Positions 34,953 through 60,578 of a DNA stretch of 64,000 nucleotides are shown here, one piece after another. Under the pieces are notes generated by a model. That model searched no databases. It was not told the DNA's origin and worked only from the letters and a program-made list of their open reading frames with translations. The position numbers were made by a program, and so were the translations under genes. The stretch comes from Eledone cirrhosa (Eukaryota): NCBI GenBank assembly GCA_964016885.1, contig OZ024746.1, positions 35,402,001 through 35,466,000 of the forward strand, read 5' to 3'. The first letter of the stretch is position 1; every line of letters begins with the position of its first letter.

Positions 34953-35017
34953 TATTTCATTATACATATTTCAGGGATACCAAATTAAAATATGGTATGC
35001 CTTCATCGGACAAAATA
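34953..35017 (-). ncRNA. Mirror hammerhead copy with core mutation (CCGAUGA)
   Basis: Reverse complement of the 35307-35371 motif with CUGA changed to CCGA. Confidence 0.6.
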
Positions 35018-35306
35018 CAATATATAAACAGTTTTATAAAAAATGTTGACGTACCCTATTAGATGCGACCATTATTTTTGGAAGCTGTCTTTATCTCAAA
35101 CAATATACAGCCCCCCCCCCCGCCCGAGTCTCTCCATCATACGGATGGAGAGACTCGGGGGGGGGGTGCTGTGTGGAGAGAGGAGGATAATAACTTTCAT
35201 ATGTCTACCCTTGCAATATCTTGTTTGAGATGAAGACAGCTTCCAAAAATAATGGTCGCATCTAATAGGGTACGTCAACATTTTTTATAAAACTGTTTAT
35301 ATATTG

Positions 35307-35371
35307 TATTTTGTCTGATGAAGGCATACGATATTTTAATTTGGTATCCCTGAAATATGTATAATGAAATA
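35307..35371 (+). ncRNA. Type I hammerhead motif (family C)
   Basis: TATTTTGT-CTGATGA-AGGCATAC...GTATCCCT-GAAA-TATGTA-TA-ATGAAATA. Confidence 0.78.
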
Positions 35372-35683
35372 AATATGGTTTTATAAATATAGTTTCCATT
35401 TATTTAATATCGTATATATATATTTATATATATATATATTTATATATATATAAATATATATATCTATATATAAATATATATATATATATTTATATATATA
35501 TAAATATCTATATCTATATATAAATATATATATATATATTTATATATATATAAATATCTATATCTATATATAAATATATATATATATATTTATATTTATA
35601 TATATATAAATATATCTATCTATATAAAAATATATATATATATAAATATATAAATATATATATATATATTTATATTTATATAT

Positions 35684-35963
35684 ACTAGTACAGCGTTCCT
35701 TTGTCAGTGTTGAACAAATGAGCAACGGTGGTTGCTAGACACTACTGCTTAATACGGGATGTTTGTTTACAAACACACCGAGCATTATAATAAATGTTCG
35801 GTGAATCCATACGTGCATATATATATGTGTGCATGTATGTATATATATATATACGTACTACTGTACGTCGGTATACATATATGTATGTACGTGTACATAC
35901 TTATATTTAAGTAACAGCCGTACTAAGATTGGGAAATGAAATATCGTTTCATTTTTTCCGTTT
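35684..35963 (+). mobile_element. Diverged family B copy starting at the HHR stem III
   Basis: Begins ACTAGTACAGCGTTCC and ends TTCATTTTTTCCGTTT then TA; inverted relative to 36139-36918. Confidence 0.8.
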
Positions 35964-35987
35964 ATATATATATAAATATATATATAA

Positions 35988-36018
<31 letters not shown>

Positions 36019-36038
36019 CATTTATATATATATACATT

Positions 36039-36087
<49 letters not shown>

Positions 36088-36094
36088 ATACATT

Positions 36095-36138
<44 letters not shown>

Positions 36139-36423
36139 AATGGAATAGAATGAAACGAAATTTCATTTCTCACTCTTTGTACGGCACTTACTTAAATGTA
36201 AGTATGTATGTATGCATACGTACACACATATATGTATACAGACCTACAGTAGTATGTATATATATACATACATGCACACACATATATATGCACGTATCGG
36301 TTTATCGAACATTTATTATAATGCTCGGTTTGTTTGTTTGTAAACAAACAAACAAACACCACGGATTACGCCGTACAGTGTTTAGGCAATCACGTCACCT
36401 TTTTGTTCAACACTGATACAGGA

Positions 36424-36466
36424 ACAATGTACTAGTTTCAAACTTATTAGCTATCGTCAGCATCGT
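36424..36466 (-). ncRNA. Minimal type I hammerhead motif (family B, copy 1)
   Basis: Minus: ACGAUG-CUGACGA-UAGCUAAUAAGUUU-GAAA-CUAG-UA-CAUUGU; differences from copy 2 are G-U wobbles. Confidence 0.85.
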
Positions 36467-36860
36467 ATACCTTCCTACCAGATGGTTGAACGTCTGAAAG
36501 TATGTACTTTCCTTATACATATTAACGGCTGAGCATCCCAATTTGCATATCGAGTGAGTTTAGTCGGCTGGGCTCACCGAAAACGATAAATGGAATAGAA
36601 TGAAACTAAATTTCATTTCTCACTCTTAGTACGGCACTTACTTAAATGTAAGTATGTATCTATGTATACGTACATACATATATGTATACAGACGTACAGT
36701 AGTATGTATTTTATATATACATACATGCACACATATATATATATGCACGTATCGGTTTACCGAACATTTATTATAATGCTCGGTTTGTTTGTTTGTATAC
36801 AAACAGCCCGTACATTGTTTAGGCAACCAAGTCACCTTTTTGTTCAACACTGACACAGGA

Positions 36861-36903
36861 ACGATGTACTAGTTTCAAGCTTATTAGCTATCGTCAGCAT
36901 CGT
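36861..36903 (-). ncRNA. Minimal type I hammerhead motif (family B, copy 2)
   Basis: Minus: ACGAUG-CUGACGA-UAGCUAAUAAGCUU-GAAA-CUAG-UA-CAUCGU; perfect 6-bp stem I, palindromic CUAG loop. Confidence 0.9.
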
Positions 36904-36918
36904 ATACCTTCCTGCCAG

Positions 36919-38400
36919 GCGTCTAACTATGGCATACCGCCTTTGTATGGGCTCCGCAAATACCACAAGACAGTCGACGACCCGACAACAGGACCACCAA
37001 CAAGACCTGTATGCGGAGCAAATATAGCTAGCAAATACAGGATCTCCTACTTCCTCTCAATAGTTATACACCCCATAATCAAGATGTCCCCAGATGTATG
37101 TGACAGTACAGAGGACCTCCTCAGCAGAATCAGTGAGTGCAACAAAAACAGGAACCTATCCAACTGCATAATAGGCAGTATGGATGTGGTATCACTGTAC
37201 CCATCCAGTAATATTGATTTTGATGTGGAAAAATGTGTGGAGATGATCATTGAGAGTGAGGTGGAGTTCTGCGACGTCGACACAGACGAACTGGGCCTCC
37301 TACTTAGACTTACCTACGACACTGACTACCTTGACAGCCATGACCTTAGACCTTTTTGCCCCAGTAGACTCATAAGAGGTAGATCCCCCACCATAACCTC
37401 AATGGCTCCCATGGGAAGGTGGATTGGGTGGACCAAAGCTACACGGACCTCCAAAAACAATGATCAGGTAAGAAAAATGGTCGCACATGCAATAGGGGCT
37501 AGTATCAAAACTACCCTAAAGGGCCACATATTCAAGTTCAACGAGAAGATCTACAGCCAAAATGAGGGAGCAGCCAAACTGTTTATGGTATGGTGGGAAA
37601 GGAGACTCAAAGATCTCCTTGATGAGAGCTCCATAGACCTCATCATGTACTCTCGTTACGTAGACGATATCAATATAGTAATAAGGACATCCCCACCAGA
37701 GAGTACTAGCAAGTTTGAATTAGAACATAGCACAATGGAAAGGATCCAGCAGATAGCTAATTCCATGCACCAGAGTATAACTGTAACTATCGACTACCCT
37801 TCCAAACACCCTAACAATAGACTACCTGTATTAGATACGGAATTCTGGATTAACACTATAGACGAGAGAGCCCACATTCTCCACTCACACTATGCTAAAT
37901 CCATGGCCTCCAAATACCTGATACTCAAAAACTCAGCAATGTCCAGCAGTGCTAAGTTTAATATTCTGATCGCAGACTTGGTACGAGTGATGAAGAACGT
38001 GTCCCACATGTGCGACCAACAGAAATGTAAAGACACATCCAACACTTCATCAACCGCATGCAGTTCTCTGGATACAACCAAAGAGACAGAATCCGAGTAT
38101 ACGAAGGAGCCACGGAGAAGTATATGACCCTCATAGAACTGGACATGAAAGGAGCAAATTATACAGGAGCAAATCATGGAATAGCTTAGATAGGACTAAT
38201 TATAAGATAGGGAAAGCCACCTCATGGTACGACAACTAGAGATACCAGAGTGTCATGTTAGTGGACGCTACCCCTGGAGGGAAATTAGCTAACCTGTGTA
38301 GAAAGGCCCCGAGAAAGACCCACTTAAAGATTAAGGCGGTAGAAAAGCCAGGAGCCACCATACAATCCCTGATCTGCAAAACCTACCCTTTTAAGAAAAC
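36919..38400 (+). pseudogene. Penelope-like element reverse transcriptase fragment (Nematis-like, inferred)
   Basis: PPLYGLRKYHK, PTRPVCGA, SMDVVSLYP, KLFMVWW, YSRYVDD, LPVLD motifs. Motif B looks deleted (QNEG|AAKLF). Frameshift near 38020, then YQSVMLVDATPGGKLA...VEKPG...TYPF; ends before the endonuclease. Confidence 0.9.
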
Positions 38401-39084
38401 CCAGAAGGCGGCGGAGTGATAGAGTGAAATAGATACACTGTGCTAGAGAAGGTCGTGACAGTAACAGTTGCAGAGAGAGGAATAATGTTAAAGCACTTTG
38501 ATTGTATACTGTAGTGGTGGTCTAGAAGTTGGTAATAACTACATACAAAAGAAAGTACGGGATAGTTATATCCAAAAGAATGGAGAAGGTGAAGGAGCGA
38601 TGAGAAGGATGATGATATATGAGAAATTAGAGCCTCACGCGAAAAACGATAGGATATTCAAACAGAGTAACATTTATAAATATATAATAGATTACGGCTC
38701 TGTTTTCAATAATTCGAAACAAAGGCAAAATAAATACTTAACAAATATTTAATACAATATATATTTAATTTGATGTTTGAAGTAATGTTTAATACACGTT
38801 ATTACCAGGTTAAAGATAAATTTGACCTCAGTGAGATCAACACTCATAAAGTAAACGGATAAATTTAAAAAATAAATGAACAGAACTATAATAACAATGC
38901 TATCGGGAGTTAAATGCAAACATTGTTAATGCAAACATTTTATAAGTGAGAAATTCAACTCATGATCGTTTAGATACAAGGTCCTTAGGGAATAAATAAC
39001 GTTGATTCTCAGTAGCTTATCCAATCCGCTACCAACTACTGCTAGATAAACTGCAACTGGTGCAGCTGGTCATTGGGGTGGTAC

Positions 39085-41735: not shown

Positions 41736-43091
<1,356 letters not shown>

Positions 43092-43112
43092 TTTATATAT
43101 ATATATATACAT

Positions 43113-45037: not shown

Positions 45038-45959
45038 CTCAACATTAAAACCAATGTAGGAAAAACATTTCTAGCCCTCTTAGATAGACACTTTCCGATA
45101 GGTCATAAATACCGATCCATCTTTAACCGGCACAAAGTTAAACAAGGATACTCCTGCGCTAAGAACATTAAGGCCCACATCACGAGCAGCCCTAGGAGCA
45201 ACACCCCACCAGGGTGCTCTTGCCGTAAGCCTGAAGCTTGCCTCCTTCAACAGCAATGCAACACACCAGCTGTAATTTATGAAGCTGTGGTCGCTTTCAA
45301 CCGACCAAACGAACCACAGGAGGTCAAATCCTATGTGGGCATGGCGGAGGGCCGATTTAAGCAATGTTTCCTGAACCACCAGTCTAACTTCAGGTACCCG
45401 TACATACGTTCATCCACGAAACTCGGGAGCCACGTATGATCCCTCAAGGACTCAAGTATAGACTACTCCATTCAATGGAAAGCCATCAATAAGTCAAAGC
45501 CATACGCAAGGGGAAATCCGACGTGTGGCATATGTATTGACGAACGAATAACTATTCTAAAGAGATTACGCAATAGTGATTGCCTAAACACGAGTTATGA
45601 ATTTTTCACACGTTGTCCACACGTCGCCAAACACCTATTGCATAACTATAAGGCTCCGGACTGATTCTTTGTAATTTTATTTTCAACCTAAAAACTTTTC
45701 GGACTTTCGCAGTTATCTCCCTTACACCTCTCGCACGCAGTCTAGTATTGTCTGTGTGAAGTGACCGGGTTTCTGCGCATGCGCGTTGGTACGGTTGTCC
45801 TCCCTGTTCCTATAACCATGCCCATTCCGAGCTGAGGATCCGCTAAGGTGAAACAATTGTTCTCGGTATAATGAACTAGCTGTTGTGTAACCGCTTCTAC
45901 CTAGCTGGTCCCATGGACGAGTGCTCTACCACTACCGATATTACCTTCCAGTGTTCCAC

Positions 45960-52974: not shown

Positions 52975-53045
52975 TATTTTATCTGATGAGAACACAAATA
53001 TCATCCCATGATGATATTTGTTTTTGAAATGCGCATAATAAAATA
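52975..53045 (+). ncRNA. Type I hammerhead motif (family A) with long stem II
   Basis: TATTTTAT-CTGATGA-GAACACAAATATCATC-CCAT-GATGATATTTGTTTTT-GAAA-TGCGCA-TA-ATAAAATA; perfect 8-bp stem I. Confidence 0.88.
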
Positions 53046-59211: not shown

Positions 59212-59310
59212 GTGGTTACACAACAGTTAGTTCACCATACCGGGAACAATTGTTTCACCTTAGCGGATCCTCAGCTCTACCACTACGGATATTACCTTCC
59301 AGTGTTCTAC

Positions 59311-59364: not shown

Positions 59365-60578
59365 ATACTTTGGGAGGGTCAGGTTGCCAATAAGAAACAC
59401 ACACACCAGTAGCTTTCACTCCAATTTATTATAAGTTAAATTAAATTATAAATTTAAGAAATTTATAACTTTCGGTTGGTTGGTTGGTTCCACAAACGGA
59501 CGGTTGTTCATATATTGTCAAAATTCTTTCGTCACACATTCTATTACCTCTCAATTGACCAGGAATTCGTTTCTTTGTTTTGTGCCTCTCCTTTGTTCTG
59601 TCCTACGCCATCTTGTTTTTGTGTGTGTTGAGTGCTCAGTTTGCGCATGTGTTACATCCGGGTGTCTGTGTGCGTTTTTATTTGTTTATTTATTTGTTTA
59701 TTTACATGTTACTGGTTGGTTGTTTGTTCTATGTGTGTGTTTTCATTCTGTCCTTAATTATAAGTTGTGATGTTGCTATTCCATTCATTGATTTCTATTT
59801 AATTTTGGTTGGAGTTTATTTATGTTTATTGCCTCTGTGATTTGTCTAAACATTGCGTCTTTTCTGTGTGTAGATTTTATTTTTATTTCTATGTTCTGTA
59901 ATTAGCACTTATGTTCTATTTTAGAATGTTGCAGGTGTACTGGTGAATCTTTTCTATCTTGAAGCTCTCGCCAGTGTTCATTTAATCGTTCTCCTATACT
60001 ACGAGCTGTCTCACCTATGTACACTATATTCTTATCTTTACATTGTCCCCCAGTACATCTTATGCTATATACTATGTTTCTAGTTTTGCAGTTAATATGG
60101 GGGTTTAGTATACAGATTATGCATTTCTTATCTATACAGGGAGGTCTTTGAAAAGGGTATGTATTAATAATAAGTGTTTTTATGGAGGTAGCTGGTCTTT
60201 CCACTATGGTAATATTTAGTTTAAGTTTATCTAGGGCCTTTCTAGATTTGTAAGCTAGTTCACCCCTAGGGGTTGTATTGATGAACATTACACTCTGGTA
60301 TTTATTGCTATCATACCATGAGTTTATTCTATTAACCCTATCCCTAGTTTTTTCTATTCTATTCCAAAATTTGCTCCTACACAAGGGGCAGGTCCCATTT
60401 GTATCATTATTTACCATTTTTTCCCATTTGGTTCAGGCTCCTCTATATTTAGTACGGGTGATGAGGAACGTTTCCCGCATGTGCAACCCCAAAGAACTAG
60501 AGAGACACATACAACACTTCATCCACCGTATGGTGTTCTCTGGTTACAAGCAGAGAGATAAAATCACAGTATATAGAG
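59361..60578 (-). mobile_element. 5'-truncated PLE (Nematis-like, inferred) with inverted 5' segment
   Basis: ORF 59902-60417: YQSVMFINTTPRGELA, C-x4-C-x2-C linker, IVYSIRC...YIGETARSIGERLNEH. 3' UTR runs to a TA tract; 60449-60578 encodes the upstream LVRVMRNVS...RMVFSGY region on +. Confidence 0.9.

Follow-up and report, generated by a model that had tools for sequence, protein, structure and literature searches.

The repeat described here lies on the minus strand of the window (the whole 64,000-nt stretch that was analysed, to which all positions refer), in a host genome of 3.0 Gb that is rich in microsatellites. It consists of one full and one partial unit, has a GC content of about 0.34, abuts a (TA)n microsatellite on one side and meets a fragment of a Penelope-like element (PLE) on the other. 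The only open reading frames overlapping the unit are low-complexity read-through frames, and none is protein-coding. Coordinates are collected in Table 1. The first-pass annotation had proposed a tandem unit with two intact minus-strand hammerheads spaced by 437 bp, and the CTGACGA cores that start at 36897 and 36460 bear out both the integrity and the spacing. The hammerheads do stand head to tail; however, the array does not comprise two full units, and the partial one is 88% identical to its neighbor. Cleavage after GUA is predicted in both copies.

Table 1. Features of the retrozyme-like array and its immediate surroundings in the window
Feature	Position	Strand	Remark
Subfamily Y copy, separate, 5'-truncated (unit 46-333, 81%)	35684..35965	+	tail-to-tail, same microsatellite
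(TA)n microsatellite	35963..36136	.	target at the unit's 3' end
Partial unit B, unit positions 1-331, stops at the family's long 3' end	36138..36481	-	88% to unit A
PLE-type tail, approximate bounds	36138..36200	-	between short (unit ~266-276) and long (unit ~333) 3' ends
Type I hammerhead B	36413..36481, core 36460-36430, predicted cut 36430/36429	-	four rare transitions
Predicted 437-nt monomer	36430..36866	-	span between both cuts; release would follow from cleavage
Repeat unit A, full, 437 nt	36482..36918	-	near-full-length matches of 87-100% in 40/40 scored genome candidates
Octamer-like motif ATGCAAAT	36541..36548	-	lies upstream of hammerhead B; a lead for a possible internal promoter
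Type I hammerhead A	36850..36918, core 36897-36867, predicted cut 36867/36866	-	family's commonest base throughout positions 1-75
CCAG 4-nt microhomology, head-to-head junction of unit and RT fragment	36915..36918	.	window alone spans the junction among 40 scored matches
Broken Neptune-like PLE fragment (retains RT and thumb; lacks the 5' part, the GIY-YIG endonuclease and the 3' pLTR)	36912..38403	+	separate family

Both motifs share one anatomy. Stem I begins with 5 bp adjoining the core and continues through a GGUAUA internal loop into a distal helix, stem II has a U-U mismatch followed by 3 bp and a UAAUAA loop, and helix III is a single pair (A15.1-U16.1) closing CUAG. This loop is self-complementary, as had been stated, and lies within the palindrome ACUAGU. 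A type I descriptor yielded 4 motifs in 31801-64000, compared with a mean of 0.01 (maximum of 1) in 300 dinucleotide shuffles. Rfam returned no match to the motifs at the gathering score, and none of its 34 matches at E<=10 belonged to a hammerhead family; weak miRNA matches were discarded, as they arise from TA-rich hairpins. Because Rfam gave no hammerhead match, the hammerhead call rests on this anatomy and on the covariation described below.

The window holds further sequences with related features. About 28 kb (3926-31775) are degenerate (TA)n with a strong G-over-C skew, and short unit-like pieces occur there at 11905-12576. A palindromic element at 34904-35420 carries another hammerhead-like motif (core 35315, plus strand) and, close to its end, a similar TTCCATTTAT; L037, L040, L045, and L059 have related motifs as well. 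A PLE endonuclease-like ORF fragment (45038-45439, plus strand) is followed at 45832 (plus strand) by a hammerhead-like motif whose loop, CAATTG, is palindromic; a second copy of this motif lies at 59274 (minus strand). Another hammerhead family, with a palindromic TGCGCA loop, a long stem II and inverted copies, is present at 52983 (plus), 19251 (minus), and 19389 (plus). The 1.2-kb inverted repeat at 41893-43106, which has further partial copies, is possibly another PLE-type inverted insertion.

Three genome searches with the unit or parts of it gave 2,478, 370, and 1,545 first-look candidates, of which 40 were scored each time; these figures are lower bounds and not copy numbers. Subfamily Y, used as a genome query, returned no matches. 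A total of 92 loci (90 from the searches and 2 extended) was reduced to 80 by dropping 12 repeats of the same place, and this sample is biased towards good matches to the window copy. Two of the loci, L117 and L118 (C2, ~81 kb apart), have near-identical flanks and copies and are probably a segmental duplication or an assembly duplicate. Both were counted in the arm and 3'-end counts, and L118 was excluded from the allele-sharing and core-mutation tests.

At least two hammerheads were present in one arm at 37 of the 80 loci (26 of 27 from the full-unit search, 9 of 51 from the less biased short-query searches, and both extended loci), the remaining 43 having at most one per arm. The 47 natural cut-to-cut monomers measured 416 to 468 nt, and the hammerhead core was intact in 117 of 147 family pieces. 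The family displays sequence-level features of non-LTR retrozymes: a type I hammerhead per unit, head-to-tail repeats of ~150-450 bp in many copies, neither a protein-coding ORF nor LTRs, GC below 50%, and a monomer circle predicted to be highly self-paired. One locus, L091 (G000:C8:34012954-34021999 and beyond), holds at least 20 units, with internal partial units, higher-order and local duplications and several shared broken cores. The units of this long array carry 9 to 19 changes each, and the locus is a retrozyme turning into satellite DNA.

The ends of the copies are not distributed alike. Among the 167 arms at the 80 loci, 66 had a short 3' end (unit ~258-282) and 63 a long one (~326-336), with 38 ending elsewhere; 129 of 167 thus stop at one of two fixed sites ~60 nt apart. 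The short end falls in a TA-like part of the unit, which blurs its exact position. A TA-rich flank adjoined the long 3' end in 60 of 63 cases, the short one in 54 of 66, and an end elsewhere in 3 of 36. Under a target-site duplication criterion of >4 bp, flanks of copies were either (TA)n or altered at the 5' junction. The 5' ends were scattered, as in random 5' truncation, and only 4 of 129 canonical arms began around the cut (positions 46-60), against ~4.4 expected under uniform spread. Arms were paired head to head in 54 cases. Both ends were canonical in 34 of them, and the other 20, with one arm ending elsewhere, were set aside. These 34 pairs comprised 31 long-short and 3 short-short combinations and no long-long combination (binomial P = 4e-7 against 0.5). 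The inverted arms overlap in sequence, many junctions overlap by 1 to 7 nt, and at L007 and L097 the two arms derive from different subfamilies. Taken together, the two fixed 3' sites, the random truncation at the 5' side, the inversions, and the (TA)n targeting are marks of retrotransposition.

These marks can be compared with what is described for PLEs. A PLE protein was shown to cleave AT-rich DNA on both strands, to extend both, and to start reverse transcription at two internal sites, leaving a genomic tail; the tail and the paired start sites are described as PLE-only features (PMC11167929). PLE copies include partial tandems and inverted 5' copies, often with the tail at one end only, and show a microsatellite bias (PMC8557442). 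The copies analysed here likewise combine a tail from two internal RT start sites with 5' truncation, an inverted 5' arm and a microsatellite target. It is likely that the locus is a 1.8-unit copy of a non-LTR retrozyme, put into (TA)n by a PLE RT-endonuclease acting in trans. In the proposed mechanism, the PLE protein would nick (TA)n and begin reverse transcription within the RNA at unit ~270 or ~333. At inverted insertions both DNA strands would be primed, one at each start site, and the two cDNAs would join via microhomology. We hold these insertion steps to be very probable. So far, arguments on the carrier enzyme of animal retrozymes have drawn on co-occurrence and pLTR phylogeny; in these copies, the PLE-specific tail and inversion signature is direct.

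Selection on the ribozyme has to be judged separately within the family and between families. Copy B departs from the commonest bases by C5T, C40T, C56T, and G65A. The first-pass annotation had pointed out that differences between the two hammerheads keep pairing as G-U wobbles. Such wobbles exist, but they are rare private C-to-T decay in copy B and do not support a function; C5T and G65A make up one double change, which may be due to chance. Across the family, G-U wobbles were rejected as covariation: pairing survives in 42 of the 113 changed pairs, compared with a 26% expectation derived from the substitution spectrum, and ~16 of these 42 represent two inherited alleles of a single pair. 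A deficit of core mutations, considered as a trace of selection on copies (43 versus 69, uncorrected), was also rejected, since it vanished upon correction; with non-independence handled, 26 rare core changes were observed and 30 expected. Judged from these comparisons, main-family copies decay neutrally, and selection becomes visible between lineages.

The evidence for the latter comes largely from sister family Z, which is 70% identical to the unit and was represented by 2,439 candidates, 40 of them scored. It keeps CUGANGA, GAAA, the GGUAUA loop, and the unpaired 10.1/11.1 position. Double changes affect pairs 18/56, 21/53, 30/41, 32/39, and 48/49, the last inside the palindrome; loop III reads CAUG in place of CUAG and is palindromic still, and the triplet is GUU. 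Subfamily Y adds pair 19/55, where U19-G55 replaces A19-U55. For 11 chosen sequences, pairing holds in 98% of cells, compared with 23 to 43% in slid controls, and both partners change in 7 of the 16 pairs; this covariation amounts to about seven events rather than 27, and the window sequence served to draw the structure. Five compensatory double changes with the core kept in family Z thus argue that the dimeric ribozyme was selected, and the palindrome-preserving change is natural evidence of selection on a dimeric hammerhead. Family Z (L083:195-627, L128-L157) is older, apparently has the same two 3' ends, and showed no linked ORF at 30 loci.

The octamer-like motif was intact in 111 of 129 pieces and is retained in all three lineages, including family Z. 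It may be an internal promoter element, although the whole surrounding context is equally kept. The promoter of newt satellite 2 uses an octamer.

Folding of 36918-36410 gave model energies of -142.8 kcal/mol for the dimer, -129.4 kcal/mol for two monomers, and -145.8 kcal/mol without constraint. In this energy model the exchanged-strand dimer is thus 3 kcal/mol less stable than the unconstrained minimum and 13 kcal/mol more stable than two separate monomers. Because the model favors the dimer, a two-unit transcript would be cut as a dimer. For such motifs, dependence on a dimer has been shown in PMC7229834 and discussed in PMC4209133. The circular fold of the monomer reached -120.1 kcal/mol with 63% of bases paired (z of -4.85 against 60 shuffles), a value that TA-rich palindromes inflate; 13 other monomers, with 15 shuffles each, were also low (14 of 47 folded).

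Reverse transcription begins downstream of the cut, at a distance of 217 to 280 nt, and usually continues across it; in the short-query set, 27 of the 41 arms with canonical ends span an intact cleavage site. Since it reads through the cut and no copies end there, the template would be a religated circle or an uncut multimer; the lack of a 5'-end pile-up at the cut argues that the cleaved linear monomer is not the usual template. Rare alleles were shared at 14.5% within an arm and at 0.6% between loci (10 of 36 arms). Rolling-circle copying predicts such sharing, yet it was rejected as proof in view of the duplication patterns. At L014, L011, and L100, adjacent units share different allele subsets, and units A and B of the window share none. 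Judging by sequence patterns, later DNA-level duplication fits L014, L011, L100, and L091 better than a rolling circle does. A single linear master was also sought in position-specific variants. None of 15 common alleles was convincing: 330A is a 3'-junction effect, and other low P values track the sampling of subfamily Y.

The best overall explanation, to which we assign a probability of about 0.78, is a non-LTR retrozyme that a PLE mobilized in trans into a (TA)n microsatellite. In a two-unit transcript, the hammerheads would pair via ACUAGU, and cleavage after GUA would set free a monomer of ~440 nt; we consider this step probable. A host ligase would then close the monomer, and the circle, unable to dimerize in cis, would be copied by the RT more than once round. 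Towards this step we incline slightly, mainly by analogy with the non-LTR retrozymes of coral, mussel, and axolotl, which accumulate as circles (PMC7229834). Weighing against the explanation, cleavage of Xenopus retrozyme dimers in vitro was reported for only 1 of 9 (10.64898/2026.07.22.740005). We doubt that the slightly decayed copy in the window is still transcribed.

A possible but less probable account is that of a non-autonomous PLE derivative copied from uncut linear multimers, the hammerhead cutting slowly or acting at a different step and the circle being unnecessary. Read-through of intact cleavage sites is in line with it, long arrays such as L091 are possible sources, and the test of within-arm sharing did not single out a rolling circle. 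Uncut RNA is also the main PLE substrate in vitro, where the PLE hammerhead is dispensable for insertion (PMC11167929). However, compensatory changes that keep the fold and the palindrome indicate that cleavage matters in spreading lineages. The long array that was examined is heavily mutated, unlike most dispersed copies with their predominantly intact cores, and the accumulation of other non-LTR retrozymes as circles (PMC7229834) also argues for the circle.

The PLE fragment that adjoins unit A was called Neptune-like from a YVDD motif, a CX4CxxC linker and GIY-YIG-like motifs in translations of its family; the linker ahead of a GIY-YIG-like domain corresponds to the Neptune/Nematis layout. 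Pfam did not name the fragment, and one piece of a relative matched RVT_1 below the cut-off. The family comprised 4,075 candidates, of which 40 were scored. It has its own 3' pLTR and tail, similar to the unit only in TA-rich sequence, and because this pLTR is a different one, the unit is not the pLTR of the RT-fragment family. In inverted copies of this autonomous family the tail was, by our reading, one-sided in 8 of 9, as in the inverted insertions of the unit. DNA beyond 38403 is single-copy. DNA contigs over 36130-37200 were fragmented, with a bin past the junction lacking cover. The fragment differs from the family column majority at 3.6% of sites, and units A and B differ at 9 of ~270 and 6 of ~166 scored columns, respectively, some of these differences being common alleles. 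Their ages are compatible, which fits co-insertion and later landing alike.

A partner for the unit was looked for in the same material. Neither two Neptune-like families nor the fetched loci, a non-exhaustive portion of the genome, yielded an autonomous PLE whose pLTR is homologous to the unit. No PLE ORF continued from the unit at the other 79 loci or at 30 family Z loci, and among 35 unpaired arms only that of the window adjoins a PLE ORF. The second Neptune-like family, 68% identical to the first, is represented by a 3' end with its own pLTR and a (TA)n terminus at 59380-60390 (minus strand) and at L006:1-835. At L032-L060, a Neptune-like pLTR contains a CTGACGA...GAAA core-like motif with no obvious palindromic loop III or stem I, and the Neptune-like ORF has a long Asn-rich N-terminal stretch.

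The junction also suggests a more speculative model, in which each inverted insertion is built from two RNAs by a PLE dimer that starts at the long site on one DNA strand and at the short site on the opposite one. The window would then record a mixed event, a retrozyme arm joined to a Neptune-like mRNA arm by the 4-nt microhomology. The predominance of long-short pairs (31 of 34), the mixed-subfamily arms of L007 and L097, and the similar divergence of the two window arms are consistent with this model. Against it, the Neptune arm lacks a 3' end, the junction is unique, and PAc showed no difference between the strands in its start site in vitro (PMC11167929). Landing of a retrozyme by an older fragment, with a deletion, accounts for the window equally well, and we regard the two-RNA model as unlikely. 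We found no account of inverted arms drawn from two RNAs in the literature consulted, mostly non-subscription papers. If true, the model would turn the window into physical evidence for mobilization of a retrozyme in trans by a PLE whose own pLTR is unrelated. Near-strict long-short pairing and arms of two subfamilies provide a testable rule for a PLE dimer priming both strands.

Very improbable is a DNA-level minisatellite with an inherited dead hammerhead, which can stand only in a secondary role. In keeping with it, L091 is locally duplicated and its units share broken cores, some arms of three to four units show duplication patterns, and private mutations strike the core at the background rate; the retrotransposition marks (fixed 3' sites, 5' ends truncated at random, inversions and (TA)n targeting), the mostly short and dispersed loci (43 of 80 with at most one hammerhead per arm), and covariation between families speak against it. 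Least credible of all is that the adjacent Penelope-like RT element has these repeats as its pLTRs, in inverted or tandem arrangement: the unit does stand head-to-head with a 5'-truncated PLE RT ORF, as in PLE 5' inversions (PMC8557442), and hammerheads are typical of pLTRs (PMC4209133), but 0 of 29 other copies of the RT family have the unit within 1.5 kb, that family's own 3' pLTR and tail are unlike the unit outside TA-rich sequence, and the junction is unique among the 40 scored matches.

On criteria that can be tested in sequence, the window contains a new member of the non-LTR retrozymes, for which cleavage and a circular RNA are predicted. The retrozyme-like character proposed in the first-pass annotation was upheld by the tandem genomic copies, the dimer favored in the model and the palindrome kept in the sister family. 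That annotation mentioned neither the marks of PLE insertion nor the Neptune-like RT fragment that directly adjoins the 5' end of the unit. The contribution of the locus is the PLE insertion signature together with the long-short rule; the element class has been described already, and the locus is one decayed copy of many.

The metazoan non-LTR retrozymes of coral, mussel, and axolotl (Cervera and de la Pena 2020, PMC7229834) resemble the unit in their head-to-tail type I hammerhead repeats, low GC, lack of an ORF, and predicted self-paired monomer. The one-pair helix III with a palindromic tetraloop is similar to that of axolotl HHR_Amex1, and the U-U at the base of helix II to that of HHR_Amex2 (PMC7229834). 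At ~440 nt, the unit lies at the top of the 150 to 450 bp range of retrozymes (PMC7229834). It differs in being known from DNA only and in its explicit PLE tail and inversion marks, for which the sections consulted in PMC7229834 give no counterpart. Li, Clavereau, and Pollet (2026, bioRxiv 10.64898/2026.07.22.740005) treat retrozymes as non-autonomous PLEs. Both window cores being intact, the unit is "active" by their definition (at least two consecutive complete hammerheads), and it co-occurs with Neptune-like PLEs. Their case is built on co-occurrence and pLTR phylogeny, whereas ours is built on an insertion signature, with no homologous pLTR partner found.

Neptune/Nematis-type PLEs (PMC4209133, PMC8557442, PMC11167929) resemble the unit in the tail that results from two internal RT starts, in truncation and inverted arms at the 5' side, in (TA)n targeting, and in a hammerhead that depends on a dimer, by prediction in the unit. 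In contrast to these PLEs, the unit has no RT-EN ORF and its tail is ~60 nt, compared with 30 to 40 nt. The minimal pLTR hammerhead is described with a long helix II, whereas in the motif of the unit stem II is short and stem I is long and interrupted by an internal loop. Newt satellite 2 (as cited in PMC7229834 and PMC2220036) is likewise a tandem repeat with a dimer-dependent hammerhead. Its snRNA-type promoter (PMC2220036) has a possible parallel in the octamer-like motif of the unit, which may form part of an internal promoter of the same type.
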